From NCBI RefSeq assembly GCF_058153355.1, contig NZ_CM177019.1: 64,000 nt of DNA, one strand, 5' to 3'. The notes beneath the pieces were generated by a model. The model was not told the DNA's origin, ran no database searches, and worked only from the letters and a program-made list of their open reading frames with translations. Position 1 is the first letter of the stretch. Each line of letters opens with the position of its first letter. Of the stretch, positions 8,494 to 51,602 are shown piece by piece. The position numbers and the translations under genes are program-made.

Positions 8494-8576
8494 AGAGTGA
8501 CCGCCTGTAATTGGCGTGTTTTTGCATAAATGGAACAGGGTTTTGTAGTGAAAACATATTGCTAAGGAGGATTTAT

Positions 8577-9422: not shown

Positions 9423-9446
9423 TGCTTTTATTTGACGGGGGAGTAT

Positions 9447-10510: not shown

Positions 10511-12712
10511 ATGTCATTAAAAGGGCTGCGCTTTACGCTGACGGTGGACGGACTGGTGCCGGAGACGTTTGCGGTGGTGGATTTCCGCCTCACGCAGGCA
10601 TACTCATCGCCGTTCGTCCTGGATGTGGACGTTGCCAGCGACTCGTTCCGCCAGACGGCGGAGAAGCTGCTGGAGAAGGGGGCCGTACTGACCATCTGGC
10701 AGGGTGGCACGGCGCTGCGTTATGTGAGCGGTGTGGTGTCGGGGTTCGGCATGAAGGAGCACAACGGCTGGCAGATGCAGTACCACCTTCAGATACGTCC
10801 GCCCCTGTGGCGCAGCGGGCTGCGCCAGAACTACCGAATCTTCCAGCAGCAGGACATTCAGGCCATCTCCGCCACGCTGTTAAACGAGGACGGAGTGACG
10901 CAGTGGACGCCGCGCTTTTATGAGAGCCACCCGGCACGGGAGTTCTGCGTCCAGTACGGTGAAAGCGACATGGCGTTTCTGACCCGGCTGTGGGCGGGGG
11001 AAGGCATCTTCTTTTATGACAGATACGCTGACGACAGCCCGGAGCAGACGCTCACGCTGTGCGATGATGTGGCGGGCCTGCCGGTGTACGGGGAGATACC
11101 GTTTAACCCGAACACCCGTGAGGTGACGACGGCGTGCATCAGCCTGTTCCGCTACCAGGCGCAGGTGCGGCCCTCGCAGGTGCGTTCAAAAGACCACACG
11201 TTTAAGGTGCCGGACTGGCCGGGTATTTACATTGAGGATGCTGAAAACCTCAACGGGCAACTGAAGCAGTACAAAATCCTGGACTGGCCGGGGCGCTACA
11301 AGGACGAGCAGCATGGTCAGGACTTTACCCGCTACCGGCTGGAAGGGCTGCGTAACAGTGCTGAAACCGCCACAGGTATCAGTAACTCCCCGGCGCTGTG
11401 GCCGGGACGGCGGTTCACCTTGACGGGGCATCCGGTACAGGGAGCGAACCCGAACCGTGAGTGGCAGGTGGTGAGCAGCACGCTGACGGGGAGCCAGCCG
11501 CAGGCGCTGCACGGGAGTCACGGTGAAGGGACGACACTGAGCAATCAGTTTGAGGTGATACCGGCAGACAGGACGTGGCGTCACGCGCCGCTGCCGAAGC
11601 CGAAGGTGGACGGCCCGCAGAGTGCCATCGTGACCGGGCCGAAGGGTGAGGAGATATTCTGCGACGAGCATGGCCGGGTACGGGTGAAGTTTCACTGGGA
11701 CCGTTATCACGGGATGACGGAGGAGAGTTCGTGCTGGATACGGGTGTCGCAGGCATGGGCGGGACCGGGGTTCGGCAATCTGGCGATACCGCGTGTGGGT
11801 CAGGAAGTGATAGTGGACTTTCTGAACGGCGACCCGGACCAGCCCATTGTGACGGGGCGGACCTACCATGAAGATAACCGTTCACCGGGGGATTTACCGG
11901 GCACGCGGACGCAGATGACCATCCGCTCGAAGACCTATAAAGGAAGCGGCTTTAATGAACTGCGTTTCGAGGATGCGACGGACAGTGAGCAGGTGTATAT
12001 CCACGCGCAGAAGAACATGGACACGGAGGTGCTTAACGACCGGACGACGGACGTGAAGCATGACCATACGGAGACCATCGGTAACGACCAGAAGATAAGG
12101 GTGGTGAAGGGGCAGACGGTTGAGGTCGGCACCAGAAAAGAAGGGGGTCACGACCAGAGTATCACGGTGGCGAACGACCGGCGCATAACGGTACGTAATG
12201 ACCAGACGCTGAAGGTGACGAATGACCGGACGGTGAGCGTGAGTCACGATGACGGCCTGTATGTCAGAAACGACCGTAAAGTGACGGTGGAAGGGAAGCA
12301 GGAGCATAAGACGACGGGGAACCATATCAGCCTGGTGGAGGGAAAGCACAGTCTGGAGGTGAAGGGCGACCTGGCGAGGAAGATTACCGGTGCGCTGGGA
12401 ATGAAGGTCCGGAATGAAATCGTACTGGAGAGTGGCGGTAAAATCACCCTAAAGGTGGGTGGTTCGTTTGTGGTCATCCATTCAGGGGGCGTGGACATCG
12501 TCGGGCCGAAAATCAATCTCAATAGCGGCGGTAGTCCGGGAACGCCGGTGCCGACGCTACGACCGGCGGTTTTGAAAGCGCTGGCAGATTATGACAATGG
12601 CGGACCTGGAACTGAAGGGGCGGAGCCACCACGGAAAAGTGTACAGGAAGCCTTTGATCCTCCCCAGCAGGATAAGGTACCGCCACAACGGCCGGGAAGA
12701 TTCTCACGATAA
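10511..12712 (+). CDS. vgrG: T6SS spike protein VgrG (copy 2) with short Pro-rich C-terminal tail
   Basis: 733-aa ORF, N-terminus MSLKGLRFTLTVDGL...; central about 0.88 kb is nucleotide-identical to vgrG1; GGAGG RBS upstream. Confidence 0.92.
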   Translation: MSLKGLRFTLTVDGLVPETFAVVDFRLTQAYSSPFVLDVDVASDSFRQTAEKLLEKGAVLTIWQGGTALRYVSGVVSGFGMKEHNGWQMQYHLQIRPPLWRSGLRQNYRIFQQQDIQAISATLLNEDGVTQWTPRFYESHPAREFCVQYGESDMAFLTRLWAGEGIFFYDRYADDSPEQTLTLCDDVAGLPVYGEIPFNPNTREVTTACISLFRYQAQVRPSQVRSKDHTFKVPDWPGIYIEDAENLNGQLKQYKILDWPGRYKDEQHGQDFTRYRLEGLRNSAETATGISNSPALWPGRRFTLTGHPVQGANPNREWQVVSSTLTGSQPQALHGSHGEGTTLSNQFEVIPADRTWRHAPLPKPKVDGPQSAIVTGPKGEEIFCDEHGRVRVKFHWDRYHGMTEESSCWIRVSQAWAGPGFGNLAIPRVGQEVIVDFLNGDPDQPIVTGRTYHEDNRSPGDLPGTRTQMTIRSKTYKGSGFNELRFEDATDSEQVYIHAQKNMDTEVLNDRTTDVKHDHTETIGNDQKIRVVKGQTVEVGTRKEGGHDQSITVANDRRITVRNDQTLKVTNDRTVSVSHDDGLYVRNDRKVTVEGKQEHKTTGNHISLVEGKHSLEVKGDLARKITGALGMKVRNEIVLESGGKITLKVGGSFVVIHSGGVDIVGPKINLNSGGSPGTPVPTLRPAVLKALADYDNGGPGTEGAEPPRKSVQEAFDPPQQDKVPPQRPGRFSR

Positions 12713-12721
12713 GGACTGAAC

Positions 12722-15211
12722 ATGAAAATCAGCCATCCCATCAGGGATAAAGAAGGCAAAGAGTTTCGCTCACTGGATGAGATAATGCGGCTTATTGACA
12801 AAGAAGCGCACGGAACCTGGCTGCTGGGTGGAAACGGGCTGTGGCACGGCGGGATACATATCAGTGACGTGTCTAATCCGTTATCAGCCCTGAAACCGGA
12901 TACCGCCGCTACCGGAGAACCGGTTCCTCTTCAGTTTATGGCCGATGGCACCATTGCGGCGTACCGGATAAATAATGATTACCTGAAAGGCCCCTACAAA
13001 GGGCAGCAACTCCGTTACAGCAGCACATTTGTTCTGGTGAAATCGCAGTGCCAGCCAGACCCGCAAAAAAAAGAAAGCTGGCTGGAATTTTACTGTCTCT
13101 ATATGCATCTGGCCCCGGTGAACGATTATCCCGGCTCCCCCTGCTATAAAGTTAAAACCGGGCATGGTGGCATATTGCTGCACCGATACATCCCGGGAAA
13201 GAACGGCCTTCCCGAGGGGCAGGAAAGCGGAGATCATGCCACGTACTGGATACCCCCGAAAATCAGCGGAAACAGGACACTTAATGCGGGAGATCGGTTT
13301 GTGTCATCCCGGACCGGACGTTTTTACGTGACCAATAACGGCCAGCCGGTCCTGACGACATTCGGACTGGTTCGCCTGCTGGAAGGCAATAAACCGGGGA
13401 ATGAGCAGTACTGGGTGACCCTGGATCCGGATCTGATGGAGTCAGATGGCGAAATACAGATGCTGATGCCTGAGTGGATGCAGAAGGCGAAGGCAAAAGG
13501 CATTTTTGACTCGGTACAGACGGTCGACGAAACGGAAGAGTGGAAAGTCAGTGCCGGAACACCGGTCGGATTTATGGGATGCGAGGATTATCCTGGCGAG
13601 GGAAGCGGTGAGATTGAGCGCGAGTGGTTCGTCCATCTGGAGGTTCTGAGTACAGACCCGAATATGCCAAAGTTCTTATCCAACCCGGCAGGCGTTAAGG
13701 GAGAAAAACGGACTGTTCTGGCACCAAAAGGGATAATTTTATACACCCGGCAGGCCGTTCCGGGACAGGAGGTATTTACCGCAACCGCAGCCACGCTGGG
13801 TGCTCAGCGCGTTCTTCCGCGGGAAGCCACGACACCAGTCACGGATGAATCGCAGCAGTGGTGGTTTAATATCACCGGAACCGGCTGGCTGCCACAAAAG
13901 GATGTTGAAGAGGCCGGACAGTATGATTTACTGAAGCTGGGTTTTCAACCGCTGGAGGAGAACAGCAGCGGTGACATGACGTACAGCCCGTACGAAGGAT
14001 GGGTGCCGGAAGCGTTTGACTCAATAAGCCGTGCCGCAGAACAGGGAGATGAGTGGCTGTATGAGCAGGTACCGCCCTTTTATCGTGAGCTGATGGCGGG
14101 TATGGATCAGGACGGTGATGGAAAAGTGACGGAGGAAGAGATCAGACAGGCGCTGATCGTGCGTGAACCACTGGTGAGAAATGTGGTGAATCATCTGATA
14201 GTTAAACACCACAGCGAATGGTACGGAGGGCGCTCGACAGGGCGGTGGGAAGGATTTTATAAAGATCTGGATACAGAGGAAGTGGCATACTGTGAGAAGT
14301 GGCAGCTGGATCTGGAGTGGATGAGCGGGGTATCTCCGTTTAATAGTGATGATGCTGTGTGGCATTTTCATCCGGTTGTGTTTTTGGACGCTATTAATTC
14401 CAAATCTGTGTGTGCTTGCAACAGAGATATAACATTAGATGAATTAAAAAAAGTTGCTCCTGCAGTAAGTGAAGGTCTTCTCAAAAGGTACCTCTACGAT
14501 ATAAATGCAGGGTTTATTCGGTTTGGTATGACCACTTGTAGAGAAAAAGCCCATTTTCTTGCTCAAATTATTCACGAGAGCGGTTATTTTAGATATACCA
14601 AAGAAATTAATGGTGAATCAGCTTCATATAGTCCGTGGTATGGCCGAGGCTTAATACAAGTTACAGGCGAAAGTAATTACACCGCCTATGGGGAATATAT
14701 CAATGAGGACGTAACATCTTCAGATTCCGCAAGAGATAAACTCATATCCTCCCCACATTGCGTATTATCTGCGTTTTGGTATTTCAATATATTCAAAAGA
14801 ATAAATGAAGATGCTAAAAATGATGATTTTAATAAAATTACAGTAGTGATTAATGGAGGGTATAATCATTATGATGAACGGTTGTCGATATTTAATAAAT
14901 TGGTTACCTCACTTGCTGCCGAGCATTTAAATCAGAAAGAAATGAACGACGATTTCTTGTTTGATGATAGTGACGTATATGATAATAAAGTATATGCTTT
15001 GGGATGGGGGATATGGCATGATCCTGATAGCTCCCGAAGAGGGACGATCAAGAGTAACGAAGAAGCATTAAAAGGTTATAGAAGGGCGAAAGAATTAATT
15101 GACCTGCATCCGTTTCCTCAGGAAGGGCGTGAGGGTGATAGAAAAGTATATGGAATAGAAAAAAGGAATATATCCACATTTGTAGAGAGACGAATAACTG
15201 AACTGGAGTAA
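12722..15211 (+). CDS. modular T6SS effector candidate: unknown N-terminal domain, EF-hand, C-terminal GH19 (chitinase/lysozyme-like) peptidoglycan hydrolase domain
   Basis: 829-aa ORF 9 nt after the vgrG2 stop; canonical EF-hand loop DQDGDGKVTEEE; C-terminal motifs AHFLAQIIHESG and YGRGLIQVTGESNY match GH19-family catalytic signatures; the C-terminal third is AT-rich compared with the N-terminal part. Confidence 0.75.
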   Translation: MKISHPIRDKEGKEFRSLDEIMRLIDKEAHGTWLLGGNGLWHGGIHISDVSNPLSALKPDTAATGEPVPLQFMADGTIAAYRINNDYLKGPYKGQQLRYSSTFVLVKSQCQPDPQKKESWLEFYCLYMHLAPVNDYPGSPCYKVKTGHGGILLHRYIPGKNGLPEGQESGDHATYWIPPKISGNRTLNAGDRFVSSRTGRFYVTNNGQPVLTTFGLVRLLEGNKPGNEQYWVTLDPDLMESDGEIQMLMPEWMQKAKAKGIFDSVQTVDETEEWKVSAGTPVGFMGCEDYPGEGSGEIEREWFVHLEVLSTDPNMPKFLSNPAGVKGEKRTVLAPKGIILYTRQAVPGQEVFTATAATLGAQRVLPREATTPVTDESQQWWFNITGTGWLPQKDVEEAGQYDLLKLGFQPLEENSSGDMTYSPYEGWVPEAFDSISRAAEQGDEWLYEQVPPFYRELMAGMDQDGDGKVTEEEIRQALIVREPLVRNVVNHLIVKHHSEWYGGRSTGRWEGFYKDLDTEEVAYCEKWQLDLEWMSGVSPFNSDDAVWHFHPVVFLDAINSKSVCACNRDITLDELKKVAPAVSEGLLKRYLYDINAGFIRFGMTTCREKAHFLAQIIHESGYFRYTKEINGESASYSPWYGRGLIQVTGESNYTAYGEYINEDVTSSDSARDKLISSPHCVLSAFWYFNIFKRINEDAKNDDFNKITVVINGGYNHYDERLSIFNKLVTSLAAEHLNQKEMNDDFLFDDSDVYDNKVYALGWGIWHDPDSSRRGTIKSNEEALKGYRRAKELIDLHPFPQEGREGDRKVYGIEKRNISTFVERRITELE

Positions 15212-15216
15212 TTGAT

Positions 15217-15627
15217 ATGAAAGTTAATTTATTGGTTTTACTGTTTTGTTTGGTGCCTTGTTGTTTATTGGCTAAACAACAAACAACGGTAGGCTGTTTT
15301 AGCGCTGGGAAAACAAATTTAAAGTTTGTTGAAATATCGTCTGGCGATATTTTTTTAGGTTATGTGATTTATGAGAAATCCTCAAAATTTATACCTCTTG
15401 CGTTTATAAATAAATTAGAAGTGACTTTCGATGACAGGCCTTCTGAATTTTCTTATGCATGGAGCGAGGTTGTAAATGGAAAAATTAATGGGTTGTATGT
15501 TGTTTCCACACAAGGTGCAAGATTTAATTTGTTTCATTATAAATCAATAAGTGGGAAAACAACTGAGTTTGAAGAAAATATTGAGGCATATAATGATGAT
15601 GGTACTGATTGCAAATGGACTGGATGA
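15217..15627 (+). CDS. putative periplasmic immunity protein for the GH19-type effector
   Basis: 136-aa ORF starting 6 nt after the effector stop; N-terminal signal peptide MKVNLLVLLFCLVPCCLLA; AT-rich like the toxin domain. Confidence 0.6.
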   Translation: MKVNLLVLLFCLVPCCLLAKQQTTVGCFSAGKTNLKFVEISSGDIFLGYVIYEKSSKFIPLAFINKLEVTFDDRPSEFSYAWSEVVNGKINGLYVVSTQGARFNLFHYKSISGKTTEFEENIEAYNDDGTDCKWTG

Positions 15628-15789
15628 CCATTGTGCAGTTTTTTATGAAATCGATGCTGTGTTATTAAAATAATAATGCGACTAGGTTGAATTTGTTTAT
15701 TATTAATTTAAATGTTTTATGATTTTAAGTTAGACATGAATAACTGACTGGAAAATTATTTTTGAGGGATATCGTACAGGCAGGCAGGG

Positions 15790-17070
15790 AAAGATCACGT
15801 AACGCTGCTTTTTTGTACTATACAATTCGCATTTTATGTTTGAAAATTGAGATATTCCTCATTACCTGAAGCTGTTTTTTATTGCTTATACATGATCAAA
15901 TACTCCTTACATAATTAAGGAGAACAAAATGGTACTTAAAAAATTGATGGAACATATTTCTATTATCCCCGATTACAGACAAGCCTGGAAAGTGGAACAT
16001 AAATTATCGGATATTCTACTGTTGACTATTTGCGCCGTTATTTCGGGTGCAGAAGGCTGGGAAGATATAGAGGATTTTGGGGAAACACATCTCGATTTTT
16101 TGAAGCAATATGGTGATTTTGAAAATGGTATTCCTGTTCACGATACCATTGTCAGAGTTGTATCCTGTATCAGTCCTGCAAAATTTCACGAGTGCTTTAT
16201 TAACTGGATGCGTGACTGCCATTCTTCAGATGATAAAGGCGTCATTGCAATTGATGGAAAAACGCTCCGGCACTCTTATGACAAGAGTCGCCGCAGGGGA
16301 GCGATTCATGTCATTAGTGCGTTCTCAACAATGCACAGTCTGGTCATCGGACAGATCAAGACGGATGAGAAATCCAATGAGATTACAGCTATCCCAGAAC
16401 TTCTTAACATGCTGGATATTAAAGGAAAAATCATCACAACTGATGCGATGGGTTGCCAGAAAGATATTGCAGAGAAGATACAAAAACAGGGAGGTGATTA
16501 TTTATTCGCGGTAAAAGGAAACCAGGGGCGGCTAAATAAAGCCTTTGAGGAAAAATTTCCGCTGAAAGAATTAAATAATCCAGATCATGACAGTTAAGCG
16601 ATTAGTGAAAAGAGTCACGGCAGAGAAAAAATCCGTCTTCATATTGTTTGCGATGTCCCTGATGAACTTATTGATTTCACGTTTGAATGGAAAGGTCTGA
16701 AGAAATTATGCGTGGCAGTCTCCTTTCGGTTAATAATAGCAGAACAAAAGAAAGAGCCAGAAATGACGGTCAGATATTATATCAGTTCTGCTGATTTAAC
16801 CGCAGAGAAGTTCGCCACAGCAATCCGAAACCACTGGCACGTGGAGAATAAGCTGCACTGGCGTCTGGACGTGGTAATGAATGAAGACGACTGCAAAATA
16901 AGAAGAGGAAACGCCGCAGAATTATTTTCAGGGATACGGCACATCGCTATTAATATTTTAACGAATGATAAGGTATTCAAGGCAGGGTTAAGACGTAAGA
17001 TGCGAAAAGCAGCCATGGACAGAAACTATCTCGCGTCAGTCCTTGCGGGGAGCGGGCTTTCGTAATCTTG
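15790..17070 (+). mobile_element. H-repeat (H-rpt) element, ISAs1 family, nearly full length
   Basis: Encodes the H-repeat-associated transposase-like protein; its 5' end, including about 140 bp upstream of the ATG, recurs at 19865-20290 and in degenerate form at 21975-22635; element boundaries are approximate. Confidence 0.75.
15929..17065 (+). pseudogene. ISAs1-family (H-repeat-associated) transposase, interrupted by a single in-frame TAA
   Basis: ORFs 15929-16597 and 16712-17065 are in the same frame (669 and 114 nt offsets are multiples of 3) and separated only by TAA at 16598-16600; combined length about 378 codons, the size of intact H-rpt proteins. Confidence 0.75.
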
Positions 17071-17075
17071 CCCTG

Positions 17076-19492
17076 GAGGTGATACCGGCGGACAGGACGT
17101 GGCGTCACGCGCCCCTGCCGAAGCCGAAGGTGGACGGCCCGCAGAGTGCCATCGTGACCGGGCCGAAGGGCGAGGAGATATTCTGCGACGAGCATGGCCG
17201 GGTACGGGTGAAGTTTCACTGGGACCGTTATCACGGGATGACGGAGGAGAGTTCATGCTGGATACGGGCGTCGCAGGCATGGGCGGGACCGGGGTTCGGC
17301 AATCTGGCGATACCGCGTGTGGGTCAGGAAGTGATAGTGGACTTTCTGAACGGCGACCCGGACCAGCCCATTGTGACGGGGCGGACATACCATGAGGACA
17401 ACCGTTCACCGGGGGATTTACCGGGCACGCGGACGCAGATGACCATCCGCTCGAAGACCTATAAAGGAAGCGGCTTTAATGAACTGCGTTTCGAGGATGC
17501 GACGGACAGTGAGCAGGTGTATATCCACGCGCAGAAGAACATGGACACGGAGGTGCTTAACGACCGGACGACGGACGTGAAGCATGACCATACGGAGACC
17601 ATCGGTAACGACCAGAAGATAAGGGTGGTGAAGGGGCAGACGGTTGAGGTCGGCACCAGAAAAGAAGGGGGTCACGACCAGAGTATCACGGTGGCGAACG
17701 ACCGGCGCATAACGGTACGTAATGACCAGACGCTGAAGGTGACGAATGACCGGACGGTGAGCGTGAGTCACGATGACGGCCTGTATGTCAGAAACGACCG
17801 TAAAGTGACGGTGGAAGGGAAGCAGGAGCATAAGACGACGGGGAACCATATCAGTCTGGTGGAGGGAACGCACAGTCTGGAGGTGAAGGGCGACCTGGCG
17901 AGGAAGATTACCGGTGCGCTGGGAATGAAGGTCCGGGATGAAATCGTACTGGAGAGTGGTGGTAAAATCACCCTGAAGTGGGTGGCTCGTTTGTGGTCGT
18001 TCATTCTGGTGGTGTGGATATTGTCGGACCGAAAATAAATCTGAATTGCGGGCGCAGTCCGGGGACGCCGATAAATACACTACAACCGGCAGTTATGGAC
18101 GCTCTGGCTGACGAGCAGTATGACAGAGGGAATGCTGGCGGCGGGAATGACGGAGAGCCTAGTGATGAGGATGAATCAGAAGGTGGAGAAGAAGACAAGG
18201 ACGATTCAGATGAACTGGTAATTCCTGTATACGCAAAATCTTGTCTGAAGGAGAAAGGCTGCACTGATGCTGGTACGACCATGGAGCCATCGAAACATTT
18301 TGGTGATATGGCTCTATTTGCCCAGCCAGTGGAGGATGACTGTTGCGGCTATGGTACACACTATCATGACGATGAAGTGGAGCAACTTGCGCAGTCAGCA
18401 AAAAAAACCTCAGGAGCGAACTCACTGACGGGGGAAATGACAGTTGCGTCAGCGGGTGTTGCGGTTCCACTAGCGGCGGAACAGTCTGCGGGAGTTTTAA
18501 CTCGCGTATGGGGAACATTAGGGGCATGGGGTGGAGAAGGTTTTTTAAGTGTATCAAAAACGGTGCCAGCCCTTGGTGTCCTAGTATCAGCACTATATCC
18601 AATACCTGCCGGTGAAGGTAGTGATAAAGTTCCTGGACGGGATGAACAGTGGCTCGAAAATGAGCTACGTCGTAAAGCGCAATCTGGAGAGACGGCAGCT
18701 ACGCGGGCGCGCTTTCTCTTTCAGCGGAATACTGCTGGTGAATTGAGGACATACGGATACCACACACCCGCAGGTTCGGAACTTGAAGGTGTTCGGGTAG
18801 CATTGATGGAGTGGAATAAGGAATTTTCCCGTTATGAATTTTCACCTGTGTCTGATTCGGGACCAAAAATATTTTGGACGCCTGCAAAGCCAGAAGGTTC
18901 AGAGCAGCCCATACACACCGGAACTCCTGTCGAACCAGTTGATCTACCTGATATTTATGTTAATCCGATACCCGATGAAAAAACAGATATCACCACGCCG
19001 CCTTCTCCAATGCCGGAGGAGCGAAATTTTAATGACTGGATACTTGTCTTTCCTGACGGTGCGGAATTAACACCAATATATGTGTATCTGAAAACTGCAA
19101 GGGATGTAGCGGGAACAGTAACAGGTAAGGGGGAGGTGTTAGCAGGTACAGGAAGATGGCTGTCGCAGGCGGGGAAAAGCTTAGGAGTGCCAATTCCACA
19201 ACAGGTCGCAAATAAACTTCGGAGTAAGTCATTTAACAATTTTGATGAATTCATGGCAGCTTTCTGGACTGCTGTAGGTGAATGTCCAGAACTATTGAGC
19301 CAATTTAATAAAGCTAACCAAACGTTGATAAAGCGTGGACGCGCACCTTATACTATATCAAGACAAAGAGTTGGGGGGCGAGGTACATTTGAAATTCATC
19401 ATATTGACGAAATCCAATATGGGGGAGAAGTCTATGATATTGATAATCTTAGAGTAAACACACCTAAAAACCACATACGATTGCATAAATAA
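17076..19492 (+). pseudogene. 5'-truncated, frameshifted vgrG (copy 3) fused to colicin E9-like HNH DNase toxin domain
   Basis: vgrG homology begins abruptly at about 17076, right after the H-rpt end, so the N-terminal half is missing; a 1-nt deletion near 17977 (ctgaagtgggtgg here, ctaaaggtgggtgg in vgrG2) splits the reading frame; C-terminal domain ...GRGTFEIHHIDEIQYGGEVYDIDNLRVNTPKNHIRLHK matches the colicin E9/E7 DNase HNH motif. Confidence 0.8.
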
Positions 19493-19505
19493 AAAGGAGG
19501 TAGTA

Positions 19506-19778
19506 ATGGAGTTTAAAAATAATCTAGAAGATTATACGGAAGATGAATTTATCGAACTTCTAAATAATTTTTTTGAACCACCTGAGGAATTGCATGGCGA
19601 TAAGTTGTCGAAGTTTATTGATGATCTTGTAAGTCATTTTATTAGAATCACTCAGCACCCAGATGGTAGTGATTTGATATTCTATCCATCTGAAGATAGA
19701 GAAGATAGTCCCCAAGGGATTGTTGATGAGTTAAAACGATGGCGAGCATCGCAGGGGCTAGGATGCTTTAAAATATAA
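19506..19778 (+). CDS. colicin DNase-type immunity protein (Im9/Im7-like)
   Basis: 90-aa ORF 14 nt after the DNase stop with GGAGG RBS; MEFKNNLEDYTEDEFIELL...HPDGSDLIFYP...DSPQGIV...RWRASQG aligns with the Im9 family (DYTE.EF, HP.GSDLI.YP, DSP.GIV). Confidence 0.85.
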   Translation: MEFKNNLEDYTEDEFIELLNNFFEPPEELHGDKLSKFIDDLVSHFIRITQHPDGSDLIFYPSEDREDSPQGIVDELKRWRASQGLGCFKI

Positions 19779-19864
19779 TGAAAATAAATACTCATCATAT
19801 TTTATTAAAATGATTGGTGTTTTTGTTATTAACCTTAAACCACTTCCTGAGAAGGTGGTACAGG

Positions 19865-20295
19865 GAAAGATCACCAGAAGTACACTTTTTGTACTAAATA
19901 ATTCGCATTTTATGTTCAATAATTGAGATATTCCTCATTACCTGAGGCTGTTTTTTATTGCTTATACATGATCAAATACTCCTTACATAATTAAGGAGAA
20001 CAAAATGGAACTTAAAAAATTGATGGAACATATTTCTGTTATTCCTGATTACAGACAAGCCTGGAAAGTGGAACATAAATTGTCGGATATTCTACTTTTG
20101 ACTATTTGCTCCGTCATTTCTGGTACAGAAGGCTGGCAAGATATAGAGAATTTTGGGGAAACACATCTCGATTTTTTGAAGCGACATGGTGATTTTTGAA
20201 ATGGTATTCCTGTTCACATACCATTGCCAGAGTTGTATCCTGTATCAGCCCTGCAAAATTTCATGAGTGCTTTATTAAAAGGAAACCAGGGGCGG
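19865..20295 (+). mobile_element. H-repeat 5' fragment (includes truncated 64-codon transposase ORF 20005-20199)
   Basis: Near-identical to 15790-16210 of the full H-rpt; the ORF ends prematurely (GDF then stop); joined through a short internal H-rpt piece (GNQGRL) to effector-derived sequence. Confidence 0.75.
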
Positions 20296-21465
20296 CTTAA
20301 TATCACCGGAACCGGCTGGCTGCCACAAAAGGATGTTGAAGAGGCCGGACAGTATGATTTACTGAAGCTGGGTTTTCAACCGCTGGAGGAGAACAGCAGC
20401 GGTGACATGACGTACAGCCCGTACGAAGGATGGGTGCCGGAAGCGTTTGACTCAATAAGCCGTGCCGCAGAACAGGGAGATGAGTGGCTGTATGAGCAGG
20501 TACCGCCCTTTTATCGTGAGCTGATGGCGGGTATGGATCAGGACGGTGATGGAAAAGTGACGGAGGAAGAGATCAGACAGGCGCTGACCGTGCGTGAACC
20601 ACTGGTGAGAAATGTGGTGAATCGTCTGACAGTCAGACACCACAGCGAGTGGTACGGCGGTCGCTCGACGGGACGCTGGGAAGGGTTTTATAAAGATCTG
20701 GACACCGAGGAAGTGGCATACTGTGAAAAGTGGCAGCTGGATCTGGAGTGGATGAGCGGGGTGTCTCCGTTTAATAGTGATGATGCTGTGTGGCATTTTC
20801 ATCCGGTTGTGTTTTTGAATGCTATTAATAATAGCAATTACCCAAAAACTCCTGTGAATAATGAACTTATTCCATTGGAATTTTTACGATTTTATAACGG
20901 AGATACCATTGATGATGCAGACTATGAAAATGCTGCAAGGACACTACAATGCGAAGTGGCTGCAATTAAAGCTGTTGCAAAAACTGAAACTGGTAGTTCC
21001 GGTAGCTATTTTAAATTTGAACAAGAAGATGATTACGTCCCCTCAATTCTTTTTGAAAGACATCATTTCCATCGATATACGAATGGTGTGTATGATTCTC
21101 AACCTGATATTTCCAACAGCCGTTCTGGCGGTTATGGAACACGATCGGAGCAATATCAAAAATTACTTCGTGCATATGTTTTAGATAAGCAAGCTGCGCT
21201 TAAATCGGCATCGTGGGGTAAATTTCAGATATTGGCTTCAAATTACCAAGCTACCGGGTACTCTTCGCCCGAAGAGTTTATAATATCGATTTCAGAGTTA
21301 GAGAAAAACCATCTGGCGGCATTCATTAACTTCATAAAATCTAATCCTGTATTATTGCGTGCTATTAGAGATAAAGATTGGCTTAACTTTGCTCTATGTT
21401 ATAATGGGCAAAGTCAGCGAGGATATGATGACAGAATAAGGGCTAATTATGAGCAATATAGATAG
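20224..21465 (+). CDS. orphan, N-terminally truncated effector module: conserved EF-hand middle region plus alternative C-terminal N-acetylmuramidase (DUF3380-like) domain
   Basis: Residues from NITGTGWLPQKDVEEAG through HPVVFL are about 95% identical at nucleotide level to 13865-14395 of the 829-aa effector, then diverge into a C-terminus with ILFERHHFHRYT, SWGKFQILASNY and LCYNGQSQ motifs typical of the DUF3380 muramidase family; the first 20 codons derive from H-rpt sequence in another frame. Confidence 0.7.
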   Translation: MPELYPVSALQNFMSALLKGNQGRLNITGTGWLPQKDVEEAGQYDLLKLGFQPLEENSSGDMTYSPYEGWVPEAFDSISRAAEQGDEWLYEQVPPFYRELMAGMDQDGDGKVTEEEIRQALTVREPLVRNVVNRLTVRHHSEWYGGRSTGRWEGFYKDLDTEEVAYCEKWQLDLEWMSGVSPFNSDDAVWHFHPVVFLNAINNSNYPKTPVNNELIPLEFLRFYNGDTIDDADYENAARTLQCEVAAIKAVAKTETGSSGSYFKFEQEDDYVPSILFERHHFHRYTNGVYDSQPDISNSRSGGYGTRSEQYQKLLRAYVLDKQAALKSASWGKFQILASNYQATGYSSPEEFIISISELEKNHLAAFINFIKSNPVLLRAIRDKDWLNFALCYNGQSQRGYDDRIRANYEQYR

Positions 21466-21898
21466 AGCATTAATTTTTATTTTTTTATCTGGAATTCCCT
21501 GGACTCTACACGCAGGAAATAATTATTTTTTATGTAATACATCCAAAGGAACTTTGTCATTAACAAGTTTTGGTGAAACGTTGATTTATGAAATGAATAG
21601 TCAGCATGGGAATAAATTTCAATTCATTTCAGATGGACCAATGTATTCAGGATTTTTTTATAATCATTACTCCAGATTTCAAACGGATTACTTTAGCGTT
21701 AGTTTTATTCAAAGTGGATATAAGTACTCCGTGTTTAGCAATTACGACAACGGTAGTAACATGCGAGGGGTTAGTGTCATTGATATGAAAACAAAAAAAG
21801 AATACGTTTATAATTGCAAAGATTATAAAGTGGACAGGCTTTATAATCTGAAAAAAAAGCTTAAATGTGATATTAATAATGTACTAAGTTGTCAGTAA
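21449..21898 (+). CDS. putative periplasmic immunity protein for the orphan muramidase domain
   Basis: 149-aa ORF overlapping the toxin stop by 17 nt; N-terminal signal peptide (MSNIDRALIFIFLSGIPWTLHA); AT-rich. Confidence 0.55.
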   Translation: MSNIDRALIFIFLSGIPWTLHAGNNYFLCNTSKGTLSLTSFGETLIYEMNSQHGNKFQFISDGPMYSGFFYNHYSRFQTDYFSVSFIQSGYKYSVFSNYDNGSNMRGVSVIDMKTKKEYVYNCKDYKVDRLYNLKKKLKCDINNVLSCQ

Positions 21899-21904
21899 AT
21901 TGTA

Positions 21905-22640
21905 TCTTACAACGTTCGGGCGGTACGATTTACTGAAGCTGGCTTTTCATAGGCTGGAGGAAAACAGCAAGGGTAATAAAGGTAAAGACCATATAACGCC
22001 GATTTTTTGCACTAAACAATTAGCACTAAATGTCCAATAATCAAGATATCCCTTATTATTTAATAAGTGTTTTCATAGCTTATATATATTCAGACACTCC
22101 TTACATAAACAAGGAGAAAAAATGGAACTTAAAAAATTAATGGAGCATATTTCTACTGTCCCGATTACAGACAAGTCTGGAAAGTAGAGTATAAATTATC
22201 AGATATCCTAGTGCTGATTATTTTCGCCATCCTTTCCGGAGCTGAAGGATGGGAAGATATAGAGGATTCTGGTGAGACTCATCTCGATTTGTTGAAGCAA
22301 TATGGTGATTTTTAATATGGTATTCCTATTCACGATATCATTGCCAGAGTTGTGTCCTGTATCAGTCCTGGAAAATTTCACGAGTTCTTTATTAGCTGGA
22401 TGTGTGACTGTCATTCTTCAGATAATAAAACCATCATCGCAATAGATGGAAAAGCACTCCAGCACTTTTTTGATTAGCATCGTCGCAGAGGAACAATTCA
22501 TAATCATTGCGATCTCGACGATGTATAGTCTGATCCTGCGGCAGAACAAGACGGATAAAAAATCTAATGAGAGCACACTCATCAAGAACTTCTCAACCTA
22601 ATGAATATTAAAGAAAAATCATCGCAGCCAATGAAGTAAT
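21905..22640 (+). mobile_element. degenerate third module remnant: effector middle-region fragment plus decayed H-repeat 5' portion
   Basis: 21920-21975 resembles the effector YDLLKLGFQPLEENS coding sequence; 22124-22635 is a diverged H-rpt 5' part with several in-frame stops. Confidence 0.6.
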
Positions 22641-22697
22641 ATGCAAAAATAATTAGTCCTTACAAGGAGCAAAGTTCCATAATCTCCCCCGCCCCCC

Positions 22698-23834
22698 TCA
22701 ATGATCCAAATAAAGATAATGCATCCAACTGGTCATTCTTAGCAGCACTTTCCGCATCACCGAAACATGGCTGAAATGGTCGGAGTAAACCGCCACCTGG
22801 GCGTAGATACCGTCGGGTAAGGCATCAATATCAGCGTTAGGGTCCAGTTCGATGGTTCCCAGCACACCGTCCGTGCCGGGCACGACGGTTAATGATTGCA
22901 GTACCCCTTGCGCCTGATACGAACCACCAGGCACCACCGGCAAGATGCTGGTCAGTTTGCCGTGGAATACCTGCCCAGGTAGCGCGTTAAACACCACTTC
23001 CGCATCATCGCCGGGTTTCAGACGTAACAGCGAGTTCTGCCGAAATTGGGCGACAATTTGCCGTTTTTGCTCGGGGATGAAAACCATCACCGGACGTAGC
23101 GGCAAGGCAGCTGCGTATGTACCTGGGCGGATCAGTACCTGAGTAACGTAGCCATTGCTTGGTGCGCGAATGACAGTCTGCTCAAGGTTATATTTTGCTT
23201 CGGTAAGTTGCGCTCTTAAGCTCACAATCTGCGATTGCTCGCCGTTAACCATACTGTCGAGCTGACTCTGGATCTGCGCCTGCTCCGCCACCGAGCCTTT
23301 CACCAGCGCGTCCTGCGCGAGGAAGTTTTGCCGCGCATCGTCGATGTCACGTTCCGAGAACGGATTCACTGCCGCCTGGCTGCCTTTCAGGTAACGTTGA
23401 TAATTTTTAAACAAGCGGTCACGCTCCGCTGAAACCTGGGTGGTGTTGGCCTGCGCTTCAGTGAGCTGCGCGCGCAGCGTCTTTATATTATGCGTCGCCG
23501 TCATCAGGTCAGCCTGAAGCCTGTCAACTCGCACCTGGTAACGAACCGGGTCGAGTTTAAAAAGCACCTCGCCCTTTTGAATAAGCTGATTATTCTTGTC
23601 AGTGACTTCAGTAACAATTCCCGTCACCTGTGGCGTGATGGGGATCGCTATCACTGCCTTTTGCGCGGTAAAAGTGTAAGGGTGGTTGTAGTTCATCAAC
23701 AAAATCAAACCACTCACCAGAAACACGCCTCCCAGCGCCGCCGTCGCCAGCGTCCACTGATTTACCGGAATGCGGAAGATTTTAAAGACCGCCCACGCCA
23801 GCGCCACGTAAGTTAAAACAATCAATAGATCCAT
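22698..23834 (-). CDS. yibH: HlyD-family membrane fusion / inner membrane protein YibH
   Basis: 378-aa ORF with N-terminal TM helix, coiled-coil middle and beta-barrel C-terminus typical of HlyD/EmrA-like proteins. Confidence 0.85.
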
Positions 23835-23836
23835 AT

Positions 23837-24199
23837 TTAGATCTCCGGGAACGTGGAATAGTCAGTCTTTTTCTCGGCGGCGAGTTGATGCTCCAGCCGG
23901 GAAATTCGGTCAGAAAGTGCGGCGATTTCCGGGTCAGTCGCTTTCTCCTGCGACGCAACATGTGACTGCATACCCCAGCCACGCTCCGGTTGATAGAGCG
24001 TCGCCCAGATCCACAGGAACGGCCAGATAACATGCAGAGTAAACAGGCTCACCCAGCCCGCCGTATGAATAGCGTCGGCATGGGGGTGATTGCGCTTTTT
24101 GGCAATCAGATAAGGGATGTCATGTATCGCGATGATTCCATAAAAAATCACCAGAAAGACGAAGATCAGCACTCCCAACGCGAAATAGTTTAGAAACAT
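23837..24199 (-). CDS. yibI: small inner membrane protein YibI (DUF3302)
   Basis: 120-aa ORF with hydrophobic N-terminal segment, 2 nt upstream of yibH (operon). Confidence 0.8.
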
Positions 24200-24415
24200 A
24201 TCTGCCTCGGATTCACGTTTATCGGTGTTGTTTTTTGGCTGGCAGCCAGAAGGGAGTCAGGCTGATATTTTGACAATAATTCGGGTTCGCGATTCTCGCC
24301 ATAACACCAAAGAATAATTTTTAGAGGTGATGAGTTGCTTAGTTACATAACGATTTTATGACGAAGGCATAACATGCTGCAGATCACATCAGGTGAACGC
24401 CGTAAGAAAATATCT

Positions 24416-24592
24416 TGTGATTCAGATCACAAAGATTCAACAAACTAACAAAACAAAAATGTGACATTACTCACATTTAAATGCCATTTTTAGCGAAAAT
24501 CGCCGTCTTGTTGCTTTTTTACACAAGTATTTTGTGATGCACATCACGTCAATTACCTCTCTACCCCCTATATTTATGTGATCTATATCACA
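24416..24592 (+). promoter_or_regulatory. mtlA promoter region with four TGTGA-N6-TCACA (CRP-type) palindromes
   Basis: Palindromes at 24416-24431 (TGTGAttcagaTCACA), 24460-24475 (TGTGAcattacTCACA), 24533-24548 (TGTGAtgcacaTCACg) and 24577-24592 (TGTGAtctataTCACA), upstream of mtlA. Confidence 0.7.
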
Positions 24593-24735
24593 CAAAAAGC
24601 CGTCGACTGGACAGTTAACCGATTCAGTGCCAGATTTCGCACTATCAACAAGGTCCGGCTACCTCTGCCGCCACATTAACAAAAAACCTCGGGCTTCCAG
24701 CCTGCGCGACAGCAAACATAAGAAGGGGTGTTTTT

Positions 24736-26649
24736 ATGTCATCCGATATTAAGATCAAAGTGCAAAGCTTTGGTCGTTTCCTCAGCAACATGGTGATGCC
24801 AAATATCGGCGCGTTTATCGCGTGGGGTATCATCACCGCGTTATTTATTCCAACAGGGTGGTTACCGAACGAAACGCTGGCGAAGCTGGTCGGGCCGATG
24901 ATCACTTATCTCCTGCCGCTGCTGATCGGTTATACCGGTGGTAAGCTGGTAGGCGGCGAACGTGGCGGCGTAGTCGGTGCCATCACCACCATGGGCGTTA
25001 TCGTCGGCGCAGATATGCCGATGTTCCTCGGTTCTATGATTGCAGGTCCGCTGGGCGGCTGGTGCATTAAGCACTTCGACCGCTGGGTAGACGGTAAGAT
25101 CAAATCCGGTTTTGAGATGCTGGTGAATAACTTCTCCGCTGGCATCATCGGGATGATCCTCGCTATTCTGGCGTTCCTCGGCATTGGCCCAATTGTTGAA
25201 GCCCTGTCCAAAATGCTGGCTGCGGGCGTTAACTTCATGGTTGTCCATGACATGCTGCCGCTGGCGTCTATCTTTGTTGAACCGGCGAAAATCCTGTTCC
25301 TCAACAACGCCATTAACCACGGTATCTTCTCGCCGCTGGGTATTCAGCAGTCCCATGAACTGGGTAAATCCATCTTCTTCCTGATTGAAGCTAACCCAGG
25401 TCCGGGTATGGGTGTTCTGCTGGCGTACATGTTCTTTGGCCGTGGTAGCGCTAAACAGTCTGCGGGCGGTGCGGCAATCATTCACTTCCTGGGGGGTATC
25501 CACGAAATCTACTTCCCGTATGTGCTGATGAATCCGCGTCTGATCCTGGCCGTTATCCTCGGTGGTATGACTGGCGTATTCACGCTGACTATCCTGGGCG
25601 GTGGTCTGGTTTCACCGGCATCTCCGGGTTCTATCCTTGCTGTACTGGCAATGACACCAAAAGGTGCTTACTTCGCTAACATCGCGGGTGTGTGTGCGGC
25701 GATGGCAGTCTCCTTCGTTGTCTCTGCTATTTTGCTGAAAACCAGCAAAGTGAAAGAAGAAGATGACATTGAAGCAGCAACGCGTCGTATGCAGGACATG
25801 AAAGCTGAATCTAAAGGTGCATCTCCGCTGTCTGCTGGCGATGTGACTAACGACCTGAGCCACGTCCGTAAAATCATCGTTGCCTGTGATGCCGGTATGG
25901 GTTCCAGTGCGATGGGCGCAGGTGTGCTGCGTAAGAAAATTCAGGATGCAGGTCTGTCGCAGATTTCTGTTACTAACAGCGCGATCAACAACCTGCCGCC
26001 AGATGTGGACCTGGTCATCACTCACCGTGACCTGACCGAACGCGCTATGCGCCAGGTTCCGCAGGCACAGCATATTTCGCTGACCAACTTCCTCGACAGC
26101 GGCCTGTACACCAGCCTGACCGAACGTCTGGTTGCTGCCCAGCGCCATACTGAAAACGAAGTAAAAGTGAAAGACAGTCTGAAAGACAGCTTTGACGATT
26201 CCAGTGCTAACCTGTTCAAACTGGGCGCGGAGAACATCTTCCTTGGTCGCAAAGCGGCAACCAAAGAAGAAGCGATTCGTTTTGCTGGCGAGCAGCTGGT
26301 GAAAGGCGGTTACGTTGAGCCGGAATACGTTCAGGCGATGCTGGATCGTGAAAAACTGACCCCGACCTATCTGGGTGAGTCTATCGCGGTGCCGCACGGT
26401 ACGGTTGAAGCGAAAGACCGCGTACTGAAAACGGGCGTGGTGTTCTGCCAGTACCCGGAAGGCGTGCGCTTCGGTGAAGAAGAAGATGACATTGCCCGCC
26501 TGGTGATTGGTATTGCTGCCCGTAACAACGAGCACATTCAGGTGATCACCAGCCTGACCAATGCACTGGATGATGAGTCCGTCATCGAGCGTCTGGCGCA
26601 CACCACCAGCGTGGATGAAGTGCTGGAACTGCTGGCAGGTCGTAAGTAA
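24736..26649 (+). CDS. mtlA: PTS mannitol-specific EIICBA component
   Basis: 637-aa ORF; membrane EIIC domain followed by EIIB and EIIA domains; precedes mtlD and mtlR. Confidence 0.95.
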   Translation: MSSDIKIKVQSFGRFLSNMVMPNIGAFIAWGIITALFIPTGWLPNETLAKLVGPMITYLLPLLIGYTGGKLVGGERGGVVGAITTMGVIVGADMPMFLGSMIAGPLGGWCIKHFDRWVDGKIKSGFEMLVNNFSAGIIGMILAILAFLGIGPIVEALSKMLAAGVNFMVVHDMLPLASIFVEPAKILFLNNAINHGIFSPLGIQQSHELGKSIFFLIEANPGPGMGVLLAYMFFGRGSAKQSAGGAAIIHFLGGIHEIYFPYVLMNPRLILAVILGGMTGVFTLTILGGGLVSPASPGSILAVLAMTPKGAYFANIAGVCAAMAVSFVVSAILLKTSKVKEEDDIEAATRRMQDMKAESKGASPLSAGDVTNDLSHVRKIIVACDAGMGSSAMGAGVLRKKIQDAGLSQISVTNSAINNLPPDVDLVITHRDLTERAMRQVPQAQHISLTNFLDSGLYTSLTERLVAAQRHTENEVKVKDSLKDSFDDSSANLFKLGAENIFLGRKAATKEEAIRFAGEQLVKGGYVEPEYVQAMLDREKLTPTYLGESIAVPHGTVEAKDRVLKTGVVFCQYPEGVRFGEEEDDIARLVIGIAARNNEHIQVITSLTNALDDESVIERLAHTTSVDEVLELLAGRK

Positions 26650-26990
<341 letters not shown>

Positions 26991-50173: not shown

Positions 50174-51377
<1,204 letters not shown>

Positions 51378-51602
51378 AAATCGCGGAAGGGATGAAACAA
51401 CAGCGCCTGACGGCGCTGTGTCTGGCATGCCTGCAATCCGGGAGACTGGACCAGGAAAAAACTTGCAGGCCGTAACAGTATCTACCAAATTGTGCAGATT
51501 TAATATTTTGCAGGAACCGCGTAGGCATGATAAGCGTAGCGCATCAGGCAATTTTGTGTTTGCCATCAGCTTCAAGGGCTGGTATTCCAGCCCTTGTTCG
51601 TG

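Follow-up and report, generated by a model that had tools for sequence, protein, structure and literature searches.

Orphan toxin-immunity modules are a known feature of CdiA loci, and the boundary between the constant and variable parts of Rhs and CdiA proteins is marked by the motifs PxxxxDPxGL or VENN. The swapping of such orphans in the two families explains how strains change their competitive identity. For Rhs proteins the modules were reported by Koskiniemi et al. (2014), as cited in PMC5361080 and PMC12288458. [quoted passage not shown] 2017, PMC5361080). WHIX, the VgrG-loading domain of a class of T6SS cargo effectors, was described in 2025 (Fridman et al. 2025, PLoS Biol, PMC12135965), and the class comprises, according to its describers, 4,434 unique proteins, mostly peptidoglycan hydrolases, with N-acetylmuramidase and chitinase-like domains among the C-termini listed. 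Orphan cassettes and toxin swapping, known for Rhs and CdiA, are not reported for WHIX effectors: the main text of PMC12135965 does not contain the word “recombination”, and “orphan” is used there for effectors located away from T6SS genes rather than for 5′-truncated copies or C-terminal cassettes. The orphan proteins WP_001361050 and WP_241957727 are absent from its dataset.

We analyzed a 64,000-nucleotide stretch (the window) of contig NZ_CM177019.1, from an Escherichia genome; all features given below lie on the plus strand. The locus contains an orphan WHIX cassette, probably a former resident of the effector locus that has been displaced downstream and is able to recombine with the full-length gene. 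That full-length gene (12722–15211) encodes an 829-aa WHIX-class cargo effector with a GH19/chitinase-like lysozyme C-terminus, and the spike gene vgrG2 (10511–12712; NCBIfam TIGR03361, E = 3.4e-176) ends 10 bp before its start. The WHxxxH motif of WHIX region 1 (WHGGIH, aa 41–46, at 12842–12859) occupies the same position as WHSGIH, aa 41–46, in the archetype Va01435, and W41, H42, and H46 are invariant in the WHIX family alignment (A3). BLASTP matched the effector to the archetype over aa 1–310 (E = 2e-27) and aa 527–766 (E = 2e-18), and the end of WHIX in Va01435 (F476) pairs with V552. The gene has, as in the described class, the motif, a bipartite domain homologous to the archetype, a vgrG neighbor, and a separate, peptidoglycan-targeting C-terminal toxin followed by a signal-peptide gene. 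An ortholog, WP_000703217.1, is present in the supplements of the WHIX paper (tree and C-terminus files, PMC12135965), and in the tree it adjoins an E. coli WHIX-muramidase protein, WP_244073897.1. Pfam gave only a weak GH19 match for the C-terminus (E = 0.074), and the GH19 assignment is made because matches to the GH19-type endolysins 9ms7 (E = 4.8e-15) and 4ok7 (E = 1.5e-11) in the PDB back it. From the gene context beside vgrG2, secretion is predicted to be T6SS- and VgrG-dependent through WHIX, and we infer that the C-terminal tail of vgrG2, with the final residues ...PGRFSR, is similar to the WHIX-binding tail of A. jandaei VgrG4 (PMC12135965). The following gene (15217–15627, 136 aa) is, by its position and signal-like N-terminus, a putative immunity gene for the GH19 domain and is kept together with the effector in four related loci (L001, L002, L012, and L094). 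Classification of the N-terminal domain as a degenerate M23 peptidase (from WHGGIH, YMHLA, and VHLEV) was rejected, since these are WHIX motifs according to the literature; the PIX class of Enterobacterales effectors and a Pantoea T6SS paper (PMC9796082) as the source for the family were likewise rejected, as neither the literature on PIX nor that paper describes the WHIX effector family.

The original prediction had placed downstream of this gene a second copy of its conserved region, joined to a muramidase C-terminus, followed by a signal-peptide gene and preceded by H-rpt-derived sequence, and each of these elements was recovered. On precise alignment, copy A (13866–14398) and copy B (20297–20829) share 533 bp of homology, in which 18 positions differ and one tract of 291 bp is identical; the BLASTN match is gapless and slightly longer (13856–14398 with 20287–20829, 96.1% over 543 bp), its first 10 bp being junction microhomology. 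Both copies comprise codons 382–559 (C-terminal part of WHIX region 2, with an EF-hand loop), and they are direct repeats in the same reading phase with a period of 6,431 bp, as the predicted deletion of about 6.4 kb requires. The repeat stops at codon 559, 7 codons past the WHIX end, and in the alignment family-wide conservation ends at W547-H548-x-H550-P551..F554, collapsing after F554 (boundary motif WHxHPVxF). The shared region belongs to the WHIX secretion domain itself, of which it forms the C-terminal part; it is not a separate linker.

The orphan frame (20224–21465) is open throughout, with an in-frame ATG at 20263, and PGAP annotates the equivalent ORF as WP_354001005.1 in another E. 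coli. Past copy B it encodes an N-acetylmuramidase toxin domain (20830–21465), with ORF aa 244–412 matching Pfam PF11860 (Muramidase) at E = 3.7e-44 over HMM positions 1–174 of 175. Alignments with the PF11860 endolysins 7q4s (E = 3.9e-30), 5nm7 (E = 8.7e-25), and 7rum span the whole catalytic domain, with E-values between 3.9e-30 and 3.3e-24. In 7q4s and 5nm7 the V-E-S motif supplies a Glu, which we take from the AP3gp15 literature to be catalytic, and the orphan keeps it within T-E-T. Unlike these endolysins, the orphan domain, a predicted toxin, is joined to a WHIX fragment in place of a peptidoglycan-binding domain and has a candidate immunity gene as its partner. The latter (21449–21898, 149 aa, with a hydrophobic signal-like N-terminus) overlaps the toxin stop by 17 nt, and it is 70% identical to the gene after a full-length WHIX-muramidase effector in Enterobacter, where the same 17-nt overlap occurs; it is thus a candidate for the cognate, periplasmic immunity gene. 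Neither Pfam nor NCBIfam returned a family for it, and NCBIfam returned none for the full-length effector, the orphan, or the other immunity gene. The same arrangement occurs in independent assemblies, including the complete genomes NZ_CP169399.1 and NZ_CP169309.1, and so is not an assembly artefact of the window.

The claim that the orphan lacks the VgrG-loading N-domain held, with a refinement. Homology to the full-length gene begins at codon 382, the sequence upstream is H-rpt-derived, and WHIX codons 1–381, with the WHxxxH half, are missing, but the C-terminal WHIX part, codons 382–559, is retained. Judged from its sequence, the orphan is a fragment of a WHIX family member and presumably not a functional one, keeping part of the loading domain and lacking the WHxxxH half. 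Because codons 1–381 are missing, and given the published role of WHIX, we infer that it would not be loaded on VgrG and would be undeliverable as it stands.

As had been proposed, the arrangement follows the logic of Rhs and CdiA. It is a real orphan toxin-immunity cassette, a downstream, 5′-truncated, same-orientation copy with a stretch of constant region up to the constant/variable boundary, a different toxin (PF11860 versus the GH19-like domain), and its own adjacent immunity candidate; as in the Rhs elements of E. coli, H-rpt copies are interspersed. Unlike in those systems, a cargo-loading domain (WHIX) takes the place of Rhs/YD repeats or of a filamentous haemagglutinin stalk as the constant part; the effector is a cargo protein of its own instead of a PAAR-, VgrG-, or two-partner-secreted fusion; WHxHPVxF marks the boundary, as against PxxxxDPxGL or VENN; and the WHIX toxins are predicted to act in the periplasm. 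The layout extends the orphan-cassette principle to cargo effectors that stand alone and whose constant part caps VgrG. In V. cholerae, too, a new module displaces the resident at a cargo-effector locus, older genes remain downstream in age order, and homology-facilitated illegitimate recombination is the proposed mechanism (PMC5361080). The arrays there consist of orphan immunity genes, whereas here a complete toxin domain and 533 bp of recombinogenic homology are retained, so that the displaced toxin can be re-joined.

Patterns of H-rpt sequence bear on how the orphan arose. One complete element of the ISAs1 family (H-rpt1, 15785–17075, 1,291 bp) has a transposase split into two ORFs (NF033564, E = 2.6e-80 and 2.3e-29) and 14-bp terminal inverted repeats, CAGGGAAAGATCAC / CAGGGCAAGATTAC, at 15785 and 17062–17075, with no target-site duplication in its flanks. 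The copies at 19861 and 21980 are 3′-truncated fragments. The first, on the 5′ side of the orphan (19861–20296), retains its left end intact; 418 bp of the element (19861–20278), with 91.9% identity to the left-hand 420 bp of H-rpt1, are followed by a 24-bp piece matching 16514–16537; a short ORF within it matches the NCBIfam ISAs1 transposase, and it meets WHIX codon 382 at a TTAAT microhomology. In L001, the H-rpt is of the H-rpt1 type nearly up to the junction. The other fragment (21980–22623) is 81% identical to H-rpt1 and adjoins yibH; in E. coli K-12 the yibF–yibH site is the rhsA locus.

SNP patterns and the locus in the sister species E. whittamii suggest that the orphan was formerly the resident C-terminus of the locus and was displaced downstream. 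At each of the 21 sites that discriminate A from B, copy B of L001, L002, and L012 has the same allele as the full-length muramidase lineage, and E. whittamii has the WHIX-muramidase arrangement together with an older WHIX remnant and H-rpt. Displacement would have occurred as a GH19 toxin-immunity module, bringing an H-rpt with it, joined the 5′ part of the gene, through a homologous junction on the left and an illegitimate one, at TTAAT, on the right. Arrays of the L001 type could have been derived from the window type by H-rpt × H-rpt deletion, or the reverse.

Once both copies were present, a direct in-frame repeat of 533 bp makes conversion and deletion possible. RecA-type recombination between the copies would either convert sequence from one to the other or remove 6,431 bp and thereby restore a full-length WHIX-muramidase effector of 770 aa with its immunity gene. 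The in-silico recombinant of copies A and B is in frame, has this length and deletion, and is identical at 740 of 749 positions (98.8%) to P0005, a protein that occurs in nature; the contig encoding it (L003) follows the window colinearly over 12744–14398 and then over 20287–26679. The predicted recombinant junction was found in nature: draft E. coli assemblies (L003 and L093) have a full-length chimera at this locus, a state seen only in draft or Logan assemblies, in which the 291-bp exact repeat could be mis-resolved. Both diverge from the window upstream of codon 8 and are therefore not the simple deletion product of its array. A near-isogenic pair has one strain in the orphan state (L092, GCA_002319525.1) and one in the full-length WHIX-muramidase state (L093, GCA_022833325.1), with 1 SNP in 11,170 bp from codon 382 onward; copy A of the former sits on a separate contig. 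Mosaics of the two sequences also occur: copy B of L094 has an A-type tract at 14193–14254 within B-type sequence, copy B of the window is A-type at 13897 and 13948, and L095 is a mosaic of A- and B-type sequence. These patches mark gene conversion between the copies. The natural chimera, the near-isogenic pair, and the conversion mosaics, all of them comparative data, suggest that recombination with the full-length gene may yield a functional chimera. The boundary motif, the strain pair, and the mosaics are concrete material for testing the process. A deletion-type swap also loses the GH19 immunity gene, and recombinants would be exposed to killing by parental siblings.

Decay of the cassette in related strains raises the alternative that it is an inert relic, a transient fossil of effector displacement with no part in making new effectors, whose immunity gene at most protects against kin firing the WHIX-muramidase. 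The orphan ORF is frameshifted in most strains carrying it. In L001 and L012 a frameshift in the WHIX fragment is accompanied by two in the immunity gene, so that toxin and immunity are both pseudogenised, and in L002 the WHIX fragment is frameshifted and the muramidase domain is hit by IS66, with the immunity gene 100% intact. These lesions indicate that the cassette is not generally maintained by selection; dN/dS of the orphan is uninformative, with 0–1 synonymous and 2–4 non-synonymous changes per comparison. A strong promoter-like site (TTGGCT-16-TATAAT with TG, 21378–21405) just 5′ of the immunity start would also fit a relic valued for immunity, a picture that matches the one put forward for immunity arrays in V. 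cholerae (PMC5361080). A scan of the region for promoters and terminators found sites no commoner than in shuffled sequence, and claims on expression are therefore kept as hints. We regard the inert relic as unlikely, since both cassette genes are intact in the window and in frame with the full-length gene, the conversion tracts reflect exchange between the copies, the near-isogenic pair indicates that the locus has changed state on a clonal time scale, and retention of immunity is not universal, the gene being broken in L001 and L012. Since the orphan is decaying in several strains, its description as a substrate for toxin swapping holds as to capacity but not as to maintained function.

A second alternative is that the orphan is the latter of two complete tandem vgrG–WHIX modules, which lost its vgrG and the 5′ part of WHIX through H-rpt insertion and subsequent deletion. 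Both window orphans are bounded 5′ by an H-rpt with an intact left end, the truncated vgrG described below starts exactly where the right inverted repeat of the complete H-rpt1, which lacks a target-site duplication, ends, and 5′ deletions of WHIX-muramidase genes are real, since in L095 and L096 codon ~128 is joined beside yibF. This origin is nonetheless doubtful, as the junction of the muramidase orphan falls within the H-rpt, at TTAAT and following an internal deletion, and not at an element end, two complete tandem WHIX modules were present at the locus in none of the genomes examined, and E. whittamii, L003, and L093 each have a single WHIX-muramidase gene there. Finally, a stand-alone gene, with a 400–413-aa ORF expressed from the H-rpt promoter region and acting as a cargo effector via its retained WHIX part or as a cytoplasmic or autolytic muramidase, would fit the open frame with its ATG, the PGAP call, promoter-like hexamers at 19963–19991, and the remark by the Pantoea study authors that secretion of orphan toxins as cargo might occur (PMC9796082), but is highly improbable, with no signal peptide, no recognisable ribosome-binding site before either start, frameshifts in most carriers, and loss of WHIX region 1 and the first half of region 2, which in the published model help form the cavity capping the VgrG tail (PMC12135965).

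Beyond the displaced, recombination-competent cassette favored here, 5′-truncated WHIX copies, mostly with the same boundary end, were found downstream of full-length effectors in further loci (L004–L010, L015, L016, L020, and L061). Similar copies occur in Citrobacter, Lelliottia, Siccibacter, and Aeromonas, and in metagenome contigs. It is possible, and we suggest it only tentatively, that WHIX effectors form a general cassette-switching system, anchored at WHxHPVxF, with downstream arrays storing displaced cassettes, H-rpt/ISAs1 elements serving as portable homology in Escherichia for WHIX and vgrG genes alike, and switching on a clonal time scale. If this holds, WHIX loci would offer a natural and tractable setting in which to follow the turnover of T6SS effectors. 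There is also a warning for annotation, in that genes called “EF-hand domain-containing protein” and short “N-acetylmuramidase” genes beside H-rpt fragments are cassette pieces.

The window array contains two further remnants. One is a second orphan (17076–19492), a 5′-truncated vgrG fused to an HNH/colicin-type DNase C-terminus (NF047924, E = 4.7e-65), which begins exactly at the right inverted repeat of H-rpt1, is 96% identical in its vgrG part to vgrG2 11552–12585, and has a frameshift near 17990; it is followed by an ORF (19506–19778) for a colicin/pyocin-type immunity protein, with PF01320 matching the gene at the identical position in L092. The other, at 21917–21969, is 85% identical to 13915–13967 and represents a third, older WHIX fragment (about codons 399–416), which in E. 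whittamii (L013, 7418–7550) is 133 bp long.

The cassette analyzed here is an orphan toxin-immunity cassette of the WHIX class of T6SS cargo effectors, and it extends to that class a principle, orphan cassettes and their swapping, that is already well established for Rhs and CdiA. The full-length effector gene (12722-15211, 829 aa) starts 10 bp after vgrG2, and its 275 relatives in the protein database have about 560 N-terminal residues in common and differ in their C-termini, which are GH19-like, PF11860, GH108, M23+GH24, CHAP, or pesticin-like. This family is the WHIX class (Fridman et al. 2025, PMC12135965), whose defining feature is a bipartite domain bearing a WHxxxH motif; the domain alone suffices for secretion, and by prediction it caps the adjacent VgrG at its C-terminal tail. 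In the window effector WHGGIH occupies residues 41-46, alignments with the archetype Va01435 (sequence from the supplementary model of PMC12135965) have E=2e-27 and 2e-18, and an ortholog, WP_000703217.1, appears in the tree and C-terminus files of the same paper.

Within the window, BLASTN aligned 13856-14398 with 20287-20829 over 543 gapless bp at 96.1% identity. The first 10 bp are junction microhomology and not true homology, leaving a homologous stretch of 533 bp (13866-14398, GH19-linked copy A; 20297-20829, muramidase-linked copy B) with 18 mismatches, a longest identical tract of 291 bp, the same codon phase, and a period of 6,431 bp, and thus the shared region of the original prediction is present. 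The repeat stops at codon 559; the WHIX end of Va01435 (F476, ...WHYWPF) pairs with V552 (...WHFHPV), and when 20 family members representing eight C-terminus types are aligned, conservation extends to W547-H548-x-H550-P551..F554 and collapses beyond. The repeat thus stops at the constant/variable boundary, as the shared part does in other polymorphic toxins. Because the collapse of conservation and the archetype's WHIX end sit near the repeat end, the shared segment is identified as the C-terminal part of the loading domain; it is conserved, as first described, but is not a separate middle region. The orphan had been said to lack the VgrG-loading N-domain; WHIX region 1 and the first half of region 2 are indeed missing, and the C-terminal part is retained. 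WHIX region 2 contains a canonical EF-hand loop (DQDGDGKVTEEE; 14099-14140, effector aa ~460-473), found again in the orphan, and its residues D466, G467, and E473 are invariant across the 20 family members; EF-hands are not mentioned in PMC12135965, and the loop accounts for the PGAP name "EF-hand domain-containing protein" given to orphan fragments. A 244-residue chain of the same name, PDB 8xcl_A, matches the GH19-like C-terminus (E=1.6e-9) and may represent part of a WHIX effector. The C-terminal tail of vgrG2 (12680-12712) ends in ...QRPGRFSR and resembles the A. jandaei VgrG4 tail (K..KVSFSGR), reported to occupy the WHIX cavity (PMC12135965).

From the repeat, ORF 20224-21465 runs on into an end-to-end match with PF11860 (N-acetylmuramidase, E=3.7e-44), bearing out the muramidase assignment, and this C-terminus also matches the phage endolysin structures 7q4s, 5nm7, and 7rum (best E=3.9e-30), with the Glu of the endolysin V-E-S motif kept in alignment with the solved endolysins. 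The adjoining gene expected to encode a signal-peptide immunity protein (21449-21898) does begin with a signal-like hydrophobic segment and overlaps the toxin stop by 17 nt. An Enterobacter full-length WHIX-muramidase effector is followed, with the same 17-nt overlap, by a gene 70% identical to it, and because of this conserved pairing 21449-21898 is considered the candidate cognate immunity gene. The 5′ end of the orphan derives from H-rpt, as anticipated: its flank at 19861-20278 is the left 418 bp of an H-rpt/ISAs1 element, followed by a 24-bp piece from deeper inside the element that joins WHIX codon 382 at TTAAT microhomology.

Colinearity with annotated E. coli chromosomes places this T6SS "vgrG island" between yibF and yibH/yibI/mtlA. 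It begins with vgrG1 and a split M35-like gene (8511-10355), continues with vgrG2, the WHIX-GH19 effector, and a signal-peptide gene (15217-15627), and then contains a complete H-rpt of 1,291 bp with recognisable inverted repeats (15785-17075). Exactly at the right inverted repeat starts a vgrG′ orphan (17076-19778), comprising a 5′-truncated vgrG, an HNH/colicin-type DNase domain, and a colicin/pyocin-type immunity gene. Its vgrG part (1,033 bp) is 96% identical to vgrG2 11552-12585 and 94% to vgrG1, and a frameshift near 17990 divides the vgrG′-DNase orphan into ORFs 17043-18038 and 17978-19492; if it recombined with vgrG2 beyond the frameshift, a VgrG-DNase fusion would form and the WHIX-GH19 module would be lost. 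Next come an H-rpt fragment (19861-20296), the muramidase orphan and, directly after its immunity gene, a 53-bp remnant of a further WHIX fragment (21917-21969), abutted by a third H-rpt fragment (21980-22623) and then yibH. This older remnant, 133 bp long in Escherichia whittamii (L013 7418-7550), implies that the locus has seen cassette displacement at least twice. No target-site duplication was found at the complete H-rpt of the window or at that of E. whittamii (L013 7548-8845), which argues that the two flanks of each stem from different contexts, and H-rpt may be portable homology joining toxin cassettes, a role it also has in Rhs elements. In E. whittamii the WHIX sequence at which H-rpt is inserted (CAGGGAGATGAG) is similar to the left inverted repeat of H-rpt itself (CAGGGAAAGATCAC). 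Downstream of vgrG1, the gene with the HExxH motif HELSH is two ORFs in the window and in strain MFDS1022581 and is annotated in strain N96 as a single 594-aa M35 family metalloendopeptidase, so the second ORF is probably not an immunity gene.

Among 5,426 complete E. coli genomes the effector occurred in three, all with the muramidase orphan and none with the vgrG′-DNase module; many more array-type loci were found among draft assemblies and cryptic-clade Escherichia. The recombinant form that had been predicted was found only in draft or Logan contigs: L003 (Logan DRR244934) and L093 (GCA_022833325.1) carry a full-length WHIX-muramidase gene at the same site, followed by the same immunity gene, WHIX remnant, H-rpt fragment, and yibH, and the in-silico recombinant of the window (2,313 nt, 770 aa) is identical to the L003 protein at 740 of 749 positions. 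Upstream of codon 8 both contigs diverge from the window. L092 (GCA_002319525.1) shares the window's order of DNase, immunity gene, H-rpt fragment, and orphan, and from codon 382 on it and L093 are separated by a single SNP in 11,170 bp, a stretch over which other strain pairs differ by 2–9%. In a further state, on at least nine contigs (e.g. L095 9879-12365, L096 5545-7909), yibF is joined directly to a WHIX-muramidase gene that lacks codons 1 to ~127; vgrG genes are absent there and the immunity gene is intact. The order in E. whittamii is vgrG, a broken WHIX-muramidase gene, immunity gene, WHIX remnant, and the complete H-rpt, its transposase intact. In the array of L012 (E. coli M863) the GH19 immunity gene and the H-rpt fragment are separated by a fragment of a group II intron maturase (PF08388, 9267-9565).

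Copies A and B are separated by 19 fixed differences clustered in 14193-14389, with 13866-14192 nearly identical. At all discriminating sites, copy B of L001, L002, and L012 agrees with the full-length muramidase lineage; copy B of the window matches copy A at 13897 and 13948, that of L094 has an A-type patch (14193-14254) within B-type sequence, and L095 is also a mosaic. Such patterns are signatures of gene conversion between full-length gene and orphan. The orphan most likely arose by sequential displacement of the resident gene's tail, because the modules run from GH19 in use to muramidase orphan to older remnant, the orphan carries B-type alleles, and the E. whittamii arrangement fits. 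An incoming segment of WHIX 3′ part, GH19 domain, immunity gene, and H-rpt would have replaced the resident gene's 5′ part up to codon 382, by a homologous left crossover and an illegitimate right junction, with the resident tail, toxin, and immunity gene staying behind downstream; the same model has been put forward both for Rhs elements and for V. cholerae T6SS modules (PMC5361080). Once in place, the direct repeat permits gene conversion, as observed in the mosaics, and also deletion restoring full-length WHIX-muramidase. The L092/L093 pair is consistent with such a deletion or with a change in the opposite direction. Deletion would also take out the GH19 immunity gene and the DNase orphan, and because of the former loss a fresh recombinant would, we infer, be sensitive to parental siblings.

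Without the WHxxxH half of WHIX, the orphan should not be delivered alone if the published WHIX-VgrG model applies. Promoter-like sites were not enriched in the region; one strong promoter-like match lies directly upstream of the immunity start. The window cassette is intact. In L001 and L012 the WHIX fragment of the orphan has lost 1 bp and the immunity gene carries two such deletions, and the orphan of L002 has the same WHIX frameshift and an IS66 in the muramidase domain, its immunity gene being intact; these lesions show that the cassette is not generally maintained across strains.

Similar arrangements occur elsewhere. In L004-L010, a set of metagenome-derived T6SS clusters, one or two further copies of the WHIX 3′ part lie downstream of the full-length effector, with 82–98% nucleotide identity. 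In the contigs that include the full-length gene (L004, L005, L008) these copies end at residue 552-557. Pesticin-like, CHAP, or unknown domains come after them, together with small genes. A survey of one genome per species found 5′-truncated WHIX copies after the full-length effector in Citrobacter sedlakii, Lelliottia, Siccibacter colletis, and Aeromonas simiae and none in about 30 Pseudomonas loci. The parallel with Rhs and CdiA originally drawn for a VgrG-associated cargo effector is upheld in layout by a repeat ending at the constant/variable boundary, a different toxin, and its own candidate immunity gene. Displacement of cargo effectors is established in V. cholerae (PMC5361080). The word "recombination" is absent from the main text of PMC12135965, where "orphan" denotes only effectors encoded away from T6SS genes, and, judged by title and abstract, none of the seven publications mentioning WHIX in the library searched has cassette arrays as its topic. 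The natural strain pairs and mosaics make WHIX toxin swapping testable.

Elsewhere in the window are two 1.3-kb IS110-family copies (35675-36971 and 50190-51485), 97% identical, each encoding a 326-aa transposase (NF033542, E about 1e-75). Tandem repeats of ~250 bp with 85–91% identity (32229-32996) lie within a 1,571-aa ORF (30915-35630) that carries the annotation YadA-like adhesin in relatives, and their copy number varies among strains.
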